From IMG/VR virus record IMGVR_UViG_2778261693_000003: a stretch of 17,858 nucleotides of DNA, one strand, 5' to 3'. The position numbers were made by a program, and so were the translations under genes. The stretch is from a virus (Duplodnaviria; Heunggongvirae; Uroviricota; Caudoviricetes). Under the pieces are notes generated by a model that searched no databases, was not told where the DNA came from, and worked only from the letters and a program-made list of their open reading frames with translations. Positions 9,282-16,038 of the stretch are shown piece after piece; the stretch's first letter is position 1, and each line of letters begins with the position of its first letter.

Positions 9282-10063
9282 GCTGCCACCTTCTGCTCAG
9301 TGGCTTTCTGTTTCAGGAATCCAAGAGCTTTCACTGCTTCGGCCTGTGTCAGTTCTGACGATGCGCGAATGTCGCGGCGAAATATCTGGGAACAGAGCGG
9401 CAATAAGTCGTCATCCCATGTTTTATCCAGGGCAATCAGCAGAGTGTTAATCTCCTGCATGGTTTCATCGTTAACCGGAGTGATGTCGCGTTCCGGCTGA
9501 CGTTCTGCAGTGTATGCGGTATTTTCGACAATGCGCTCGGCTTCATCCTTGTCATAGATACCAGCAAATCCGAAGGCCAGACGGGCACACTGAATCATGG
9601 CTTTATGCCGTAACATCCGTTTGGGATGCGACTGCCACGGTCCGGTGATTTCTCTGCCTTCGCGGGTTTTGAATGGTTCGCGGCGGCATTCATCCATCCA
9701 CTCGGTAACGCAGATCGGATGATTGCGGTCTTTGCGGTAAATCCGGCATGTGCAGGATTCGTTGTCCTGTTCAAAGTCCATGCCGTCAAACTGCTGGTTT
9801 TCGTTGATGATGCGGGACCAGCCATCAACGCCCACCACCGGAACGATGCCGTTCTGCTTATCAGGGAAGGCGTAAATTTCTTTCGTCCACGGATTAAGAC
9901 CGTACTGGTTGGCGACGATCAGCAATGCGATGAACTGCGCATCGCTGGCATCACCTTTAAATGCCGTCTGGCGAAGAGTGGTGATCAGTTCCTGTGGGTC
10001 GACAGAATCCATGCCGACTCGTTCAGCCAGCTTCCCAGCCAGCGTTGCGAGTGCTGTACTCAT
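9278..10063 (-). CDS. bet: Lambda-type single-strand annealing protein (Red beta, RecT family), 261 aa
   Basis: Translation [66 protein letters not shown]... matches my memory of lambda Bet. Confidence 0.92.
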
Positions 10064-10068
10064 CCGTT

Positions 10069-10365
10069 TTATACCTCTGAATCAATATCAACCTGGTGGT
10101 GAGCAATGGTTTCAACCATGTACCGGATGTGTTCCGCCATGCGCTCCTGAAACTCAACATCGTCATCAAATGCACGGGTAATGGCTTTTTTGCTGGCCCC
10201 GTGGCGTTGCAAATGATCGATGCATAGCGATTCAAACAGGTGCTGGGGCAGGCCTTTTTCCATGTCGTCTGCCAGTTCTGCCTCTTTCTCTTCACGGGCG
10301 ATCTGCTGGTAGTGACGCGCCCAGCTCTGAGCCTCAAGACGATCCTGAATGTAATAAGCGTTCAT
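10069..10365 (-). CDS. gam: RecBCD inhibitor Gam, short (98-aa GamS-type) form
   Basis: Translation [60 protein letters not shown]... matches lambda Gam. The frame hits a stop 19 codons upstream of this ATG, so a longer N-terminally extended form is not encoded. Confidence 0.88.
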
Positions 10366-10440
10366 GGCTGAACTCCTGAAAATGGCTGTGAAAATATCGC
10401 CCGCGAAATGCCGGGCTGATTAGGAAAACAGGAAAGGGGA

Positions 10441-10731
10441 TTAGTGATTGAGGCCGTTACCGCGTCCGTCGAGAAAAACTTCCACGAGCAAATCACGGGT
10501 ATAAGTGCGCTCGATGCCGCGATGCAGATAAAGCCGTCCGCGTAAATTAGCTGATGCAGTCCAGGTACCATCTTTGTGTTTGACCAGCATGCCTGGCATG
10601 ACCGCACCGCGATTAACGGTCTGCGTTCCGTAATGTTGATGAACCATAAAAACTCCTGCCCGTAAGCTGGGCTGCTGAACATATAGAGACTTCTGCGCGT
10701 ATTCAGGCGGTGGATGGCCGCCGGTTGTCAT
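10441..10731 (-). CDS. Hypothetical protein at the lambda kil position (96 aa; alternative start at 10647 gives 68 aa)
   Basis: First ORF downstream of pL on the leftward strand, ending 76 nt before gam. ATG at 10731 has GAGG 10 nt upstream; ATG at 10647 has AGGAG 5 nt upstream. Sequence is unrelated to lambda Kil as I remember it. Confidence 0.5.
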
Positions 10732-10868
10732 AACTAAGCCGCCTCGTTGAAGCGACTGAGGTATAAAGTGTTGTGTTGATTTCAGCTGGTCACACCGACG
10801 TTCACGCGTCCGTTTCACCCCTCGCACTCCCCGAAGCCTGCTGAAATTCAAACTGCGGATCTAAGCGG

Positions 10869-10920
10869 TCATCGCAACGGTGAAACAGGTGGTTATCGTA
10901 TCGTTGTGTCGTTGCGATGA
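10869..10920 (-). promoter_or_regulatory. Perfect 11-bp inverted repeat (TCATCGCAACG / CGTTGCGATGA) with a 30-nt loop, in the pL leader
   Basis: Read directly from the sequence. Lies just downstream of the putative pL -10 on the leftward transcript; no U-tract follows, so it is not an intrinsic terminator. Confidence 0.5.
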
Positions 10921-10924
10921 ATTT

Positions 10925-10990
10925 ATTTAAAACTATAGTTGTTTTATCGTCAACAACAAAAGTTGTTTTATCGGTTGTTTTTAATATAAC
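10925..10990 (-). promoter_or_regulatory. Putative OL/pL: leftward promoter with an array of GTTGTT/AACAAC operator half-sites
   Basis: Minus strand reads TTGACG, 17 nt, TTAAAT, embedded in repeated AAAACAAC/GTTGTT motifs. A near-identical promoter-operator segment occurs at OR (12469-12504). Confidence 0.55.
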
Positions 10991-11090
10991 TGGTTGTATT
11001 TAGGATGGATTTATTTTGTGACTTGCATCGCATAGCGATAACTGAAGTGAGGTGTGGTGGTTTTTTGGACGGTATGAGTTATGAGGGGGA

Positions 11091-11119
11091 GGAAAAGAAA
11101 ACCCGGCGCGGTTGCCGGG
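11091..11119 (-). terminator. Rho-independent terminator downstream of the lipoprotein gene (minus strand)
   Basis: Minus strand: stem CCCGGC / loop AACCGC / stem GCCGGG followed by TTTTCTTTTCC, 9 nt after the stop codon. Confidence 0.7.
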
Positions 11120-11127
11120 TATGATTA

Positions 11128-11508
11128 TCAGTCAGCCCAACCTGATTTCGAGTTTATTTGGGTTTCTGACATTGTGTATTTCTTAATCGTGTCATCGTTA
11201 AAAAGAATAGTAAGTTCTTTTTTCGTACCGTTCGTTCCATTATGGAATAATCCATAGAATGGAATAAAAGTGGTGCCATTCACTTTTACTTTTGCAAAGG
11301 CGTACTTCCAGATCTCGTTTCCACTGTCAGTATATGAAACAGCATCAGGAGAACCAAAGTAAGATTTAACCTCATTCTTGGTTGTTTTACCTTCCTGAAG
11401 TTTAGACTGGACACTAATTTCAGTTTCATTTTTGAGTTGCTGGTTGTCTGAAGAAGCACACCCAGCCAATACAGATGCCATCATGGCAGCGATTAGGATT
11501 TTTCTCAT
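11128..11508 (-). CDS. Lipoprotein (lipobox LAGC), 126 aa, at the rexAB/sieB position of the immunity region
   Basis: Signal peptide MRKILIAAMMASVLAGC with a lipobox cysteine. AT-rich gene with a TATAAT hexamer about 15 nt upstream of the ATG and its own terminator. Mature part loosely resembles small BamE/SmpA-OmlA-like lipoproteins. Confidence 0.8.
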   Translation of the reverse strand: MRKILIAAMMASVLAGCASSDNQQLKNETEISVQSKLQEGKTTKNEVKSYFGSPDAVSYTDSGNEIWKYAFAKVKVNGTTFIPFYGLFHNGTNGTKKELTILFNDDTIKKYTMSETQINSKSGWAD

Positions 11509-11737
11509 TTTATGTTTCTATTCATTATAATCAGAAACATCTTAACATAATGATTCGAAATAAAAACCGCTACGAGATAGGGGGACATTTTGCTGACAGT
11601 AGCAACAAATCTCAGCTAACAACGAGAATATTTACTGAAATATGCAAACAGATTTGGCGTTCTTATAGAGAATTTAGTGCAATATCTAATCCGAGTGGTA
11701 TAAACCTTAACCTTCGCTCCCTTAAGTCGTAGATAAA

Positions 11738-12427
11738 TTAACCATGCTTCCTGTACGTCTGCGGCATGCTTCCAATGACCTTACCGAATATGAACACCCG
11801 GTTCATCTCGTCTTTCTCGATCGGGTCCCACGGCGAGTAGCTCTTGTTATCAGAGATAACCAGCAGCTTATCCTTCATCATTTGAAGACGTTTTACATGG
11901 GCAGTGTCGTCGTACAGAAACGCATAGATGCCATCACCGTCGAAAGATTTAACAGTGATATCAACGAACAGCAGGTCACCTGGTTCGATCGTCCCTGACA
12001 TGCTGTCACCTCGCACGTTAATGATGCGGATATTTTCCGCCTTCCTGCCATCGAACATGTGACGAGCATCGTCAAACGAGTACTCAACCGAGCGTAGAAC
12101 TTCTACAAACTCACGGTTGATTACACCTGGCCCGGCACTGACTTCTATATCAAGAACGTCAATTTTGAAGTATTTGGAATGGCTGACAGTTGATTGTATT
12201 GGTTGCACTGTACTGTCTGACATATTTCCAACGCCAGAAGATAACCATTCTGCGCGTACACCCAAAGCGTTCGCGATCTCCACGATTTTAGTTGTTTGGT
12301 TAGCTTTCCCTGTTTCGATTTTCTGAATAGCAGCCTGGCTAACCCCGACCAAATCCCCAAGCGCCTTTTGTGTAAGGCCTCGCGCTAATCTGGCTTCTTT
12401 AAGTCTTTCTGAGAGTGTTGTTTTCAT
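11738..12427 (-). CDS. cI: cI-type prophage repressor (N-terminal HTH, C-terminal S24 LexA-like peptidase), 229 aa
   Basis: HTH segment LTQKALGDLVGVSQAAIQKIETG, C-terminal autocleavage-domain motifs (VRGDSMSGTIEPGDLLFVD, catalytic Lys in HVKRL). Divergent from cro across an operator region. Confidence 0.88.
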   Translation of the reverse strand: MKTTLSERLKEARLARGLTQKALGDLVGVSQAAIQKIETGKANQTTKIVEIANALGVRAEWLSSGVGNMSDSTVQPIQSTVSHSKYFKIDVLDIEVSAGPGVINREFVEVLRSVEYSFDDARHMFDGRKAENIRIINVRGDSMSGTIEPGDLLFVDITVKSFDGDGIYAFLYDDTAHVKRLQMMKDKLLVISDNKSYSPWDPIEKDEMNRVFIFGKVIGSMPQTYRKHG

Positions 12428-12531
12428 AGATCAAATGTACAACCAAGGTTTTATTTCATCAAACGAAAATGGTTGTTGACTAAAAACAACCATAGTTTTA
12501 ATCTTGATTCGGATTAACCGCGGAGGTTGTT
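12428..12531. promoter_or_regulatory. Putative OR with divergent promoters PRM (leftward, cI) and PR (rightward, cro)
   Basis: 25-bp palindrome ATGGTTGTTGACTAAAAACAACCAT at 12469-12493 overlaps a TTGACT -35 hexamer for PR. On the minus strand, TTGATG, 17 nt, TACATT sits 6 nt from the cI ATG, which has no SD sequence. Confidence 0.55.
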
Positions 12532-12762
12532 ATGAACCCAGCAATCAAAACAGCGATCAATATCGTTGGTTCACAAAAGAAACTAGGCGATGCCTGCGAA
12601 GTTTCACAGCAGGCCGTCTATAAGTGGCTTCACAACAAAGCAAAGGTATCCCCTGAACATGTCGGCAGCATTGTTACGGCTACTGGTGGAGTTGTGAAGG
12701 CATACCAGATTCGCCCGGATCTTCCGAAGTTGTTTCCACACACCGAAAAGAACGCAGCTTAA
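12532..12762 (+). CDS. cro: Cro-like HTH regulator, 76 aa
   Basis: GGAGG 6 nt upstream of the ATG. Small HTH protein (GSQKKLGDACEVSQQAVYKWL) divergent from cI. Confidence 0.75.
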   Translation: MNPAIKTAINIVGSQKKLGDACEVSQQAVYKWLHNKAKVSPEHVGSIVTATGGVVKAYQIRPDLPKLFPHTEKNAA

Positions 12763-12774
12763 ATTTCCATTTCA

Positions 12775-12787
12775 CGCTCTTTAACAA
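12775..12787 (+). promoter_or_regulatory. boxA-like element CGCTCTTTAACAA
   Basis: Matches the antitermination boxA consensus (GCTCTTTAACAA) and sits at the nutR position just after cro. No convincing boxB hairpin follows. Confidence 0.4.
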
Positions 12788-12831
12788 TAAGCAATCAACT
12801 TAACAGTCAATTCAAACTAAAGGAGTCAATT

Positions 12832-13371
12832 ATGCAACCACTTACATACCAACAGACTAGCGAATTTATTCCGACTGCGGTGATAAATCGTTCTCAAACA
12901 AAACAAGCTCCAGGCCACGAAAAAATCCGTGATGCCGTCCGCGCCTGGTCGGCTGTAGATAATCAGGATGTCGTTGCCGCACTCATTGTGAATGAGTATC
13001 GGGAGCAGGGCGACGGCACCATCGATTTCCCTGATGATGTCAGCCGTGCACGCCAGAAGCTGTTCCGCTTCCTCGATAACAAATTCGATTCTGAAAAATA
13101 CCGAAATAACGTGCGTGAACTGACCCCGGCAATTCTGGCGGTACTACCGCTGGAATATCGCGGTTACCTGGTTGAGCAGGATAGCTTCATGACTCGGTTG
13201 GCTGAAATGGAAAAGGAACTCAGTGAGGCAAAACAGGCTGTCATTCTCAACGCACCACGCCACCAGAAACTGAAGGAAATGAGTGAAGGTATTGTGTCGA
13301 TGTTTCGTGTGGACCCGGATCTGGCTGGTCCATTAATGGCGATGGTGACCACCATGCTGGGGGCAATATGA
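12832..13371 (+). CDS. cII-position regulatory protein, possibly YdaT-family, 179 aa
   Basis: AAGGAG 6 nt upstream of the ATG. Occupies the cII position between cro and O. The YdaT-like assignment rests on a remembered motif (LTPAILAVLPLEYRGYL) and is tentative. Confidence 0.6.
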   Translation: MQPLTYQQTSEFIPTAVINRSQTKQAPGHEKIRDAVRAWSAVDNQDVVAALIVNEYREQGDGTIDFPDDVSRARQKLFRFLDNKFDSEKYRNNVRELTPAILAVLPLEYRGYLVEQDSFMTRLAEMEKELSEAKQAVILNAPRHQKLKEMSEGIVSMFRVDPDLAGPLMAMVTTMLGAI

Positions 13372-13457
13372 CAGGTTCAGAAATGGCGAAAGTCGGTCTG
13401 CGGGAACAGAACCGACTTTCAGGTGCAAATCGTAACACACTCATTGCGGGAGGAATT

Positions 13458-14387
13458 ATGGCAAACACTGCTGAGATATTCAATTTTCCAGTGCCGGATG
13501 CGGCACAAAAGGAGCCGCGCGTGGCAGATCTCGATGATGGTTATACGCGCATTGCAAATGAGTTGCTGGAAGCTGTGATGCTGGCCGGATTAACACAGCA
13601 CCAGCTTCTGGTCTTCCTGGCTGTCATGCGCAAAACATATGGCTTTAATAAAAGACTGGATTGGGTGAGCAACGAGCAACTTTCCGAATTGACCGGGATA
13701 TTGCCGCACAAGTGTTCTGCTGCAAAAAGCGTTCTGGTAAAGCGTGGGATTCTTATTCAGAGCGGGCGAAATATCGGCATTAATAATGTGGTCAGTGAAT
13801 GGTCAACATTACCCGAATCAGGTAAGAAAAATAAAGTTTACCTGAAAGAGGTAAATTTACCTGAATCAGGTAAGAAAAGTTTACCCAAATCAGGTAAAGG
13901 CGTTTACCCGAATCAGGTAAACACAAAAGACAAACTAACAAAAGACAATATAAAACCTTTTTCGTCCGAGAATTCTGGCGAATCCTCTGACCAGCCAGAA
14001 AACGACCTTCCTGTGGTGAAACCGGATGCTGCAATTCAGAGTGGCAGCAAGTGGGGGACAGCAGAAGACCTGACCGCCGCAGAGTGGATGTTTGACATGG
14101 TGAAGACCATCGCGCCATCAGCCAGAAAACCGAATTTTGCAGGGTGGGCTAACGATATCCGCCTGATGCGTGAACGTGACGGACGTAACCACCGCGACAT
14201 GTGCGTGCTGTTCCGCTGGGCATGCCAGGACAACTTCTGGTCCGGTAACGTGCTGAGTCCGGCCAAACTCCGCGACAAGTGGACCCAGCTCGAAATCAAC
14301 CGAAACAAGCAACAGGCTGGCGTGACAGCCGGCAAACCAAAACTCGACCTGACGAACACTGACTGGATTTACGGGGTGGATTTATGA
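13458..14387 (+). CDS. O: Replication initiator O: N-terminal iteron-binding domain of non-lambda specificity, C-terminal domain lambda-type
   Basis: GGGAGG precedes the ATG at 13458; N-terminus MANTAEIFNFPV...VADLDDGYTRIANELLEAV aligns with lambda O. The C-terminal about 110 aa match my memory of lambda O. The ORF frame stays open upstream to an ATG at 13368. Confidence 0.88.
   Translation: MANTAEIFNFPVPDAAQKEPRVADLDDGYTRIANELLEAVMLAGLTQHQLLVFLAVMRKTYGFNKRLDWVSNEQLSELTGILPHKCSAAKSVLVKRGILIQSGRNIGINNVVSEWSTLPESGKKNKVYLKEVNLPESGKKSLPKSGKGVYPNQVNTKDKLTKDNIKPFSSENSGESSDQPENDLPVVKPDAAIQSGSKWGTAEDLTAAEWMFDMVKTIAPSARKPNFAGWANDIRLMRERDGRNHRDMCVLFRWACQDNFWSGNVLSPAKLRDKWTQLEINRNKQQAGVTAGKPKLDLTNTDWIYGVDL
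13807..13965. repeat. Replication origin inside O: four to five 23-bp-spaced palindromic iterons plus an A-rich tract
   Basis: Iteron cores TACCCGAATCAGGTAA (13810), TACCTGAATCAGGTAA (13859), TACCCAAATCAGGTAA (13882), TACCCGAATCAGGTAA (13905) and a degenerate copy near 13836, followed by the A-rich 13921-13965. Confidence 0.8.
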
Positions 14388-15085
14388 AAAACATCGCCGC
14401 ACAGATGGTTAACTTTGACCGTGAGCAGATGCGCCGGATCGCCAACAATATGCCGGAACAGTACGACGAAAAGCCGCAGGTACAGCAGGTAGCGCAGATC
14501 ATCAACGGTGTGTTCAGCCAGTTACTGGCAACTTTCCCGGCGAGCCTGGCTAACCGTGACCAGAATGAACTGAACGAAATCCGCCGCCAGTGGGTTCTGG
14601 CTTTCCGGGAAAACGGGATCACCACAATGGAACAGGTTAACGCTGGAATGCGCGTAGCCCGTCGGCAGAATCGACCATTCCTGCCATCACCCGGGCAGTT
14701 TGTCGCCTGGTGCCGGGAAGAAGCATCTGTTAACGCCGGGCTGCCAAACGTCAGCGAGCTGGTTGATATGGTTTACGAGTATTGCCGGAAGCGTGGCCTG
14801 TATCCGGATGCAGAGTCTTATCCGTGGAAATCGAACGCGCATTACTGGTTGGTTACCAACTTGTACCAGAACATGCGGGCCAATGCGCTGGCTGACGCGG
14901 AATTACGGCGCAAGGCTGCCGATGAACTGACCTGTATGACAGCGCGAATTAACCGTGGTGAGACGATACCTGAACCAGTAAAACAACTTCCTGTTATGGG
15001 CGGTAGACCTCTAAATCGTGCACAGGCTCTGGCGAAGATCGCAGAAATTAAAGCTAAGTTCGGACTGAAAGGAGCAAGTGTATGA
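14384..15085 (+). CDS. P: Replication protein P (DnaB helicase loader), 233 aa
   Basis: Translation MKNIAAQMVNFDREQMRRIANNMPEQYDEKPQVQQVAQIINGVFSQLLATF... matches lambda P along its length. ATGA overlap with the O stop. Confidence 0.92.
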   Translation: MKNIAAQMVNFDREQMRRIANNMPEQYDEKPQVQQVAQIINGVFSQLLATFPASLANRDQNELNEIRRQWVLAFRENGITTMEQVNAGMRVARRQNRPFLPSPGQFVAWCREEASVNAGLPNVSELVDMVYEYCRKRGLYPDAESYPWKSNAHYWLVTNLYQNMRANALADAELRRKAADELTCMTARINRGETIPEPVKQLPVMGGRPLNRAQALAKIAEIKAKFGLKGASV

Positions 15086-15384
15086 CGGGCAAAGAGGCAA
15101 TTATTCATTACCTGGGGACGCATAAGAGCTTCTGTGCACAGGACGTTGCCGCGGTAACAGGCGCAACCGTAACCAGCATAAATCAGGCTGCGGCTAAAAT
15201 GGCGCGGGCAGGAATCCTGGTCGTTGATGGTAAGGTCTGGCGAACGGTGTATTACCGGTTCGCTACCAGAGAAGAACGGGAAGGAAAGGTGAGCACGAAT
15301 CTGATTTTTAAGGAGTGTCGCCAGAGTGCCGCGATGAAACGGGTATTGAGGGTATATAAAAGAACATCAATGGGAACACAATGA
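15082..15384 (+). CDS. ren: Ren protein, 100 aa
   Basis: Translation MTGKEAIIHYLGTHKSFCAQDVAAVTGATVTSINQAAAKMARAGILVVDGKVWRTVYYRFATREEREGK resembles lambda/DLP12 Ren. ATGA overlap with the P stop. Confidence 0.85.
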   Translation: MTGKEAIIHYLGTHKSFCAQDVAAVTGATVTSINQAAAKMARAGILVVDGKVWRTVYYRFATREEREGKVSTNLIFKECRQSAAMKRVLRVYKRTSMGTQ

Positions 15385-15451
15385 TGAAACAGGTGAGTTG
15401 AGTTCAAACTGTAGTACAATTCTCTCCAGTTTGAACAGGAAAGAATATGCT

Positions 15452-15784
15452 ATGAACCCTTATATTTATCTTGGTGGTGCAATACTTGCAGAGGTCATTG
15501 GTACAACCTTAATGAAGTTTTCAGAAGGTTTTACACGGTTATGGCCATCTGTTGGTACAATTATTTGTTATTGTGCATCATTCTGGTTATTAGCTCAGAC
15601 GCTGGCTTATATTCCTACAGGGATTGCTTATGCTATCTGGTCAGGAGTCGGTATTGTCCTGATTAGCTTACTGTCATGGGGATTTTTCGGCCAACGGCTG
15701 GACCTGCCAGCCATTATAGGCATGATGTTGATTTGTGCCGGTGTGTTGATTATTAATTTATTGTCACGAAGCACACCACATTAA
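15452..15784 (+). CDS. emrE: Small multidrug resistance (SMR) efflux transporter, 110 aa
   Basis: Translation MNPYIYLGGAILAEVIGTTLMKFSEGFTRLWPSVGTIICYCASFWLLAQTLAYIPTGIAYAIWSGVGIVLISLLSWGFFGQRLDLPAIIGMMLICAGVLIINLLSRSTPH is a four-helix SMR protein with the conserved Glu in TM1; matches my memory of EmrE. Confidence 0.92.
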   Translation: MNPYIYLGGAILAEVIGTTLMKFSEGFTRLWPSVGTIICYCASFWLLAQTLAYIPTGIAYAIWSGVGIVLISLLSWGFFGQRLDLPAIIGMMLICAGVLIINLLSRSTPH

Positions 15785-15814
15785 AATAATTTGTTTCTAA
15801 ACGACTAAAATATG

Positions 15815-15846
15815 GAGGCTCTTATATTTATATGAGCCTCGTTTTA
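15815..15846 (+). terminator. Rho-independent terminator after emrE
   Basis: Stem GAGGCTC (15815-15821), 12-nt loop, stem GAGCCTC (15834-15840), then GTTTTAT. Confidence 0.65.
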
Positions 15847-16038
15847 TGCTTCTTGTTAATGTCTTTATTTTTTATGTATTCTTTTATGCTTTCAAGATTA
15901 TGGCGTAAGAAAATTGCAATACGATTATTGTTGTATATTCAAGATAATGTGACCTTAATTGTCTTTTTAAATAAAAAATAAACAAAAATTATATCCCACC
16001 ACTAAGGTTTATAAAAGCATACGTTAGCAGGTGTCACC

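Follow-up and report, generated by a model that had tools for sequence, protein, structure and literature searches.

A probable KilR-type kil gene occupies the kil slot of a lambdoid prophage at the argU/DLP12 site

Introduction

The closest described relatives of the gene studied here are the kil genes of lambdoid phages and prophages, of which the Rac prophage gene kilR (b1352, 73 aa) is the reference. FtsZ inhibition by the KilR family was demonstrated in 1996 and confirmed in 2025; according to the accounts given in PMC12482147 and, for Conter et al. 1996, as cited in PMC3961180, KilR causes filamentation and loss of the Z-ring, and extra FtsZ rescues the cells. That KilR binds FtsZ is deduced even for this reference protein. 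KilR acts independently of ZipA, which lambda Kil needs (PMC12482147). Its published model has a beta core with an unstructured 7-residue N-terminal end and a 12-residue C-terminal one, and the C-terminal tail is essential in a length-dependent manner: KilR lacking three residues (a 9-residue tail) keeps toxicity and filamentation and loses cell rounding, and a second, MreB-linked activity depends on tail length (PMC12482147). Lambda Kil (47 aa) belongs to the same general phenotype class in the literature, an FtsZ-directed division block. The Kil proteins of phi80 (PHI80_42), HK225, and mEp237 are 67-69 aa long and end in ...GL(S/T/N)H; the Lula/phi80 paper (PMC2885432) has nothing on kil.

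Here we describe a gene in a 17,858-nt stretch of viral DNA (IMG/VR record IMGVR_UViG_2778261693_000003; hereafter the window), which carries a lambdoid prophage at the argU/DLP12 site. Comparison with known families and analogy with KilR make it very probable that the ORF is a KilR-type, not a lambda-type, kil, and that its product is an FtsZ-directed division inhibitor.

Results

The prophage and its leftward operon

The prophage lies at the argU/intD site (window 5696-17565), extends into emrE-ylcJ-ybcK, and retains Red, kil, cI, cro, O, P, and ren. It appears to be a relative of the cryptic prophage DLP12 of K-12, in a far less decayed state. A stretch 100% identical to the window is present in E. 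coli Combat11I9, where the order is tRNA-Arg, intD, ... exo, bet, gam, a 68-aa CDS, a BamE-like lipoprotein, an S24 repressor, cro, a YdaT-like gene, O, P, ren, emrE, and ybcK. The genes needed below, all on the minus strand, are as follows:

8601-9281, minus: exo (ORF list)
9278-10063, minus: bet (ORF list)
10069-10365, minus: gam, short 98-aa form only (ORF list and annotation)
10441-10851 at most, minus: the ORF under study, KilR-type kil (ORF list)
11128-11508, minus: BamE/SmpA-like lipoprotein gene (ORF list)
11738-12427, minus: cI-like repressor gene (ORF list)

Over 10441-11119, Perceval, IdasGreatGrand, 4A7, and other viable relatives match the window at 92-97%; only the cargo between pL and cI sets them apart. 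In the window that cargo is the lipoprotein gene, which has its own intrinsic terminator at 11101-11120 and occupies the position of rexAB between cI and pL, a position whose cargo differs among related phages.

Like the window gene, Rac kilR is an early gene of the leftward operon of a lambdoid prophage and lies upstream of recombination genes, but the downstream modules differ: a lambda-type gam-bet-exo in the window, ydaE-racC-recET in Rac, a Gifsy-like RecE module in HK225, and gene 41 plus agt in phi80. At positions 2274-2371 of the HK225 locus, on its minus strand and between Gifsy-like small genes and recE, there is also a match to the Rfam family isrB, an Hfq-binding sRNA (38.2 bits, against a gathering score of 35).

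The product belongs to the KilR family

From position and sequence, the original prediction had taken the ORF for a gene unrelated to lambda kil and of unknown function, a candidate host-targeting early gene likened to Kil as an FtsZ inhibitor. The NCBIfam profile NF008465/PRK11354 (“FtsZ inhibitor protein”) aligned over positions 1-70 of 73 with residues 69-136 of the long form of the ORF (E 9e-17), at a score of 60.8 bits that lies under the curated cut-off of 92 bits for the KilR subfamily proper; by the NCBI threshold the product reads as a relative of KilR, not as its ortholog. The match to phrog_294 (“Kil protein for bacterial septation inhibition”) was far beyond chance, with E 2.4e-38 for the ORF and 1.3e-37 for the 68-aa form. 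Rac KilR falls in the same PHROG (E 7.5e-35), whereas lambda Kil falls in three others (phrog_3924, phrog_2461, and phrog_2055). In a BLASTP alignment, Met1 of Rac KilR from MG1655 pairs with Met69 of the long ORF, with 36% identity over 61 aa (E 9e-12), so that the two proteins are homologous from residue 1 to about residue 63; a profile of 29 homologs compared with KilR gave an hhalign probability of 97.8% (E 6.7e-13). No resemblance to lambda Kil was found in sequence or profile: BLASTP gave no alignment at E<=100, the hhalign probability was 0.14%, and none of the lambda-Kil PHROGs matched. The difference from lambda Kil, an alignment with which had been named as refuting, is thereby confirmed.

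Homologs of the gene occur, several of them already named, in many phages. By tblastn, Kil is 100% identical in the viable phages 4A7, 1W, PhiR26_1, and PhiR47_2, 84-85% identical in HK225 and mEp237 (“Kil protein”), 80-82% identical in Klebsiella phages and Salmonella SEN34, 41% identical to the phi80 kil product (“FtsZ inhibitor protein Kil”), and 36% identical in Stx2a phages, several records of which are annotated kilR or Kil. A 420-bp region is present in 2,239 of 5,426 complete E. coli genomes (about 40%), nearly always at 95-99% identity, and together with the viable phages this answers the question of conservation in related prophages that came with the original prediction. A genome scan also found the gene in Citrobacter, Leclercia, Kluyvera, Enterobacter, Klebsiella, Raoultella, Siccibacter, and other Enterobacteriaceae. 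Two contigs binned as “Bacillota bacterium” (L135) and “Atopobium sp.” (L144) MAGs carry this enterobacterial kil at 100% and 85% identity, respectively; they are probably mis-binned phage or Enterobacteriaceae contigs. In the database variants P0109 and P0119 a central segment is read in an alternative frame (that of a 106-aa ORF at 10362-10682) before the kil frame returns; they represent either double-frameshift alleles or errors of assembly.

A novel host-targeting early gene, of unknown function and unrelated to known kil genes, would fit the lack of similarity to lambda Kil and the absence of any match, for the 136-aa or the 68-aa form, in a Pfam-A copy that predates PF27398. The Pfam result reflects the age of that copy, since the newer accession PF27398 is attached to all the database homologs. 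Given the clear homology to KilR and phi80 Kil, and the names already present in RefSeq (“phage encoded cell division inhibitor protein”), PHROGs, and NCBIfam, we give a novel gene almost no chance of being the right description. These comparisons place the gene as an intact, widely conserved, already known and routinely annotated member of the KilR (Rac/phi80) family. The earlier idea of an FtsZ inhibitor was thus right in kind, by homology to KilR, but “unrelated” and “unknown function” do not hold, and the family had been described before.

Conservation points to the 68-aa form as the product

An open frame extends over 10851-10441 (a 136-aa form) and holds two ATG codons, at 10731 (96 aa) and 10647 (68 aa), both of which the original prediction had listed.

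10441-10647, minus: kil (KilR-type) CDS, 68 aa plus stop (family profiles, homolog starts, RefSeq)
10653-10657, minus: Shine-Dalgarno AGGAG, 5 nt upstream of the kil ATG (read from the sequence)

We chose the start at 10647 because of the AGGAG motif, the starts of homologs, upstream stops, an insertion in phage PhiR30_1, and the RefSeq call. Homologs from many genera are 67-68 aa long and share the start M-x-x-x-H-Y-G-T; in HK225, Mulock, and phi80 in-frame stops directly precede the kil ATG; in PhiR30_1 one inserted nucleotide between the Shine-Dalgarno sequence and the ATG disrupts the longer frame and leaves a Kil that is still 100% identical; and RefSeq WP_000233576.1 has the same 68-aa coordinates in the 100% identical genome.

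The alternative is that the real product is the 96-aa form, or one of 125-139 aa, that is, a Kil whose N-terminal extension would have a new function. The open frame in the window would allow it, lengths of 96, 125, or 139 aa appear in some GenBank phage records, and predicted database proteins of 83-116 aa are numerous. Besides the upstream stops, the PhiR30_1 insertion, and the RefSeq call, it is opposed by the profiles, since the alignments to KilR, NCBIfam, and PHROG all begin at M69 of the long ORF, and by the ATG at 10731 itself, which is base-paired in a covarying stem (see below) and reads AUC, with a compensating change in its partner, in one relative. A longer product is therefore very improbable, and sequence conservation singles out the 68-aa form as the product, the 96-aa and 136-aa forms not being conserved. 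Of the two forms first proposed, only the shorter stands as such. The overlapping 106-aa ORF (10362-10682), in an alternative frame over kil, was considered and found to be without support.

Annotation of this gene varies among phage records. GenBank PV340558.1, OM475428.1, OM475430.1, OV696612.1, and PV340555.1 give it as 68, 96, 125, or 139 aa, under names such as “membrane carboxypeptidase” or “hypothetical”, and the PhiR30_1 record places the “Kil” CDS on a different, overlapping ORF. A sequence search of the PDB found no relative with a solved structure and only chance matches to PBP1a (E>1); such matches might explain why the gene is misannotated as “membrane carboxypeptidase” in 1W and 3W.

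A mosaic junction at the 3′ end of kil

The original prediction held that lambda homology resumes at the stop codon of the ORF and that a recombination junction lies near 10441. The ORF stops at 10443-10441 and the gam ATG is at 10365, leaving a spacer of 75 nt, and in lambda the kil stop (33187) is likewise 74-75 nt before the short-Gam ATG, so that the two genes fill the same slot, as predicted. A single block of lambda homology was found (BLASTN against lambda 31000-38500), in which window 8253-10450 corresponds to lambda 31000-33196 at 97.1%; the spacer lies inside it, in agreement with its description as a lambda-like gam leader. At base level the match runs up to ...GGGG(A/G)TTAGTGA(T/A)TG, beyond which divergence is total. 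Lambda homology thus ends 2-3 codons inside the 3′ end of the ORF, up to 10450, not exactly at its stop; the junction is there, but the breakpoint had been placed slightly too far toward gam.

10366-10440, minus: kil-gam spacer, lambda-homologous (base-level alignment)
10441-10450, minus: mosaic junction, about 10 nt of microhomology AAT/ATT-CAC-TAA common to the 3′ ends of KilR-type and lambda-type kil (lambda and HK225 alignments)

The last codons are AAT-CAC-TAA (N-H-stop) in the window and ATT-CAC-TAA (I-H-stop) in lambda, so both genes end in x-His-stop. The match between the window and HK225 kil, upstream of a Gifsy-like RecE module, stops exactly at 10441. Since the lambda match ends at 10450 and the HK225 match at 10441, the crossover is placed within the microhomology at 10441-10450. 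The same boundary is used recurrently, because an Stx1a phage is 98-99% identical on the gam side as far as 10450 and beyond it has lambda-type kil and cIII. The kil-gam spacer has one A more than lambda (CTGAAAATGG vs CTG-AAATAG), which puts the extension of the lambda “long Gam” (138 aa) out of frame, and only the 98-aa GamS is possible.

A second crossover point is suggested by phage D2, which has the window-type pL leader through the kil ATG and, from there on, lambda sequence: the 3′ end of cIII, then kil and gam. At 741-1033 of this locus the window-type leader, with the KilR-type ATG, joins the final ~30 codons of lambda cIII, ahead of lambda kil, and the hybrid looks like a recombination product with its crossover exactly at the kil start codon. 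Judged by these alignments, lambda-type and KilR-type kil replace each other as cassettes, with crossovers at the ATG (D2) and, on the gam side, at the His-stop microhomology. Such a swap is ordinary lambdoid mosaicism, unusually cleanly delimited.

The pL promoter and the kil leader

Inverted, the cI-cro intergenic region (12458-12501) recurs at 10927-10971 (19 nt at 95%, 29 nt at 72%), which points to a pL promoter with its operators. The hexamers (spacing 17) were read by eye and are absent from the consensus-scan output.

10925-10971, minus: putative pL promoter and OL operators, with -35 TTGACG at 10953-10948, -10 TTAAAT at 10930-10925, and GTTGTT/AACAAC half-sites (inverted copy of the cI-cro region)
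10648-10918, minus: leader of the leftward early transcript, ~270 nt from the putative pL start (~10918) to the kil ATG (no conserved ORF)

As the original prediction proposed, kil is the only gene between pL and the Red module, in the sense that it comes first on the pL transcript and no other conserved gene precedes gam-bet-exo; N, cIII, ea10, and ral are all absent there. Window 10852-11127 showed no N gene, and no recognisable nut site was found between pL and kil, unlike phi80, HK225, and mEp237, which have N or other genes and intrinsic terminators in this interval. A strong 10-bp hairpin (UCAUCGCAACG...CGUUGCGAUGA, ~10920-10870) opens the leader at the putative transcription start. Folded whole, the 281-nt leader had no significant stability (z = -0.53), and an inverted-repeat search downstream of pL and pR, aimed at duplicated put-like RNA elements, gave only the promoter/operator copies.

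A conserved two-hairpin RNA element in the leader

The leader contains an element that recurs in related loci:

10705-10765 (61 nt), minus: conserved two-hairpin RNA element (covariance-model match, 86 bits)
10765-10729, minus: hairpin 1, with CAUA/UAUA paired to UAUG at its base, including the ATG 10731 of the 96-aa form (covarying stem)
10722-10706, minus: hairpin 2, GGCGG-CCAUCCA-CCGCC (fold)
1365-1425 of the HK225 locus, 992-1051 of locus L009, and 1527-1586 of locus L014: further copies of the element

The block around ATG 10731 is common to phi80 (a 28-nt perfect match) and HK225, and phi80 and HK225/mEp237 have the same conserved element upstream of kil; Rac has a kilS sRNA region in its leader, without the element. 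An exact-pattern scan of viral contigs found the element at no fewer than 120 loci, and a KilR-family ORF lies at most 1.5 kb downstream in 86 of the 104 loci with enough flank; the link to KilR-type genes extends over more than 100 viral contigs and several enterobacterial genera.

Hairpin 1 has a stem of 14 positions in which two C x U mismatches are conserved. Across its 33 distinct sequences, 84% of positions were paired, against 23-35% when the 3′ arm was slid, and positions 9-14 each showed 2-7 pair types. In the covariance-model alignment (44 matches), 8 of the 12 pairs of helix 1 had compensatory changes and 97% of cells were paired; the covariation score was 0.411, compared with 0.127 +/- 0.012 in shuffles (reached in none of 500) and 0.03-0.08 in slid alignments. 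The G-U pairs of hairpin 1 fit the kil-sense strand only. Hairpin 2 showed no covariation, and its invariance is partly due to its use as the scan anchor.

Diverged copies from other genera, anchored on kil, keep both hairpins and change the would-be peptide, and in one copy AUC replaces AUG and a C-to-G change in the partner compensates. These comparisons identify the conserved feature as an RNA structure, not a leader peptide. A leader peptide MTTGGHPPP, acting by polyproline stalling, was considered and rejected: the downstream frame is not conserved, Siccibacter changes the peptide and keeps the hairpin, and the AUC copy is compensated.

In most phages an intrinsic terminator precedes the element (tL1A in phi80), and for HK639 the annotation gives hairpin 2 together with a U-run as a terminator; in the lineage of the window the preceding terminator is missing and the element continues in frame into kil. 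Lambda has a weakly scoring, visibly similar hairpin 1 directly upstream of cIII (CATACC...TTCACTCGAG...GTTATG), in what we take to be the tL1 region. No Rfam 15 family was found at the leader in a scan of 10000-12800 and of the HK225, phi80, and HK639 loci, and a full-text literature search with the core sequence of the element found no paper. Tentatively, the element could be a cis-regulator, not described so far, that is dedicated to the toxic KilR-type gene, a reading we hold to be possible rather than likely; it may serve as an RNase III or Rho entry site, or as a translational gate.

Predicted structure and mode of action

An AlphaFold2 model built on the 29-sequence alignment (mean pLDDT 84, pTM 0.67) has six strands over residues 7-59 and low-confidence ends. 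The predicted fold is a small SH3-like beta-barrel, an all-beta core with unstructured N- and C-terminal ends. This predicted barrel with loose ends agrees with the published KilR model (PMC12482147), so that KilR and the window Kil share a predicted beta core with floppy ends, while lambda Kil is predicted to be helical. The C-terminal tail has nine residues, DGRGNGLNH, is glycine-rich, and includes G61, G63, and L66, which are invariant or nearly so in the family; it aligns with the 12-residue KilR tail (GRDGLPVKAESW) only as far as “FL..G” and is three residues shorter.

The most likely function, by analogy with KilR, is that of a small beta-barrel protein with a flexible C-terminal tail, expressed from pL, that blocks formation of the FtsZ ring. 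Loss of cI repression would lead to transcription from pL and so to synthesis of this SH3-like barrel with its flexible, glycine-rich, 9-residue tail; the product would then stop FtsZ-ring formation, causing filamentation and, when over-expressed, loss of viability, with the tail as the likely active part. Because the tail has nine residues and KilR with a tail of that length filaments cells without rounding them, we propose, more speculatively, that this shorter-tailed relative may block division without the MreB-linked elongation defect and give filaments rather than round cells.

A KilR homolog with a diverged target, acting mainly on MreB and elongation, on another host protein, or in superinfection exclusion and not on FtsZ, might be suspected from the 36% identity to KilR, the different and shorter tail, the score under the NCBIfam subfamily cut-off, and the second, tail-length-dependent MreB-linked activity of KilR (PMC12482147). 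The core is nevertheless conserved end to end, the gene has the same pL-operon position as the kil genes of Rac, phi80, and lambda, and a change of target is unusual within a family of small single-domain toxins; we consider a change of target unlikely and retain FtsZ-directed division inhibition as the preferred reading.

Discussion

The finding is real but ordinary, and there is little new in the gene itself. For annotation, the correct 68-aa start is now fixed for a gene that is inconsistently annotated in GenBank phage records. Only the leader RNA element might reward further study. The subfamily is very common in E. coli prophages, and as a natural variant with a shorter tail it is convenient for the tail-length model of KilR. 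For lambdoid phages, the locus adds one well-resolved case in which two unrelated, functionally analogous division inhibitors have been swapped in the same slot, with both crossover points of the kil cassette exchange placed within a few bases.
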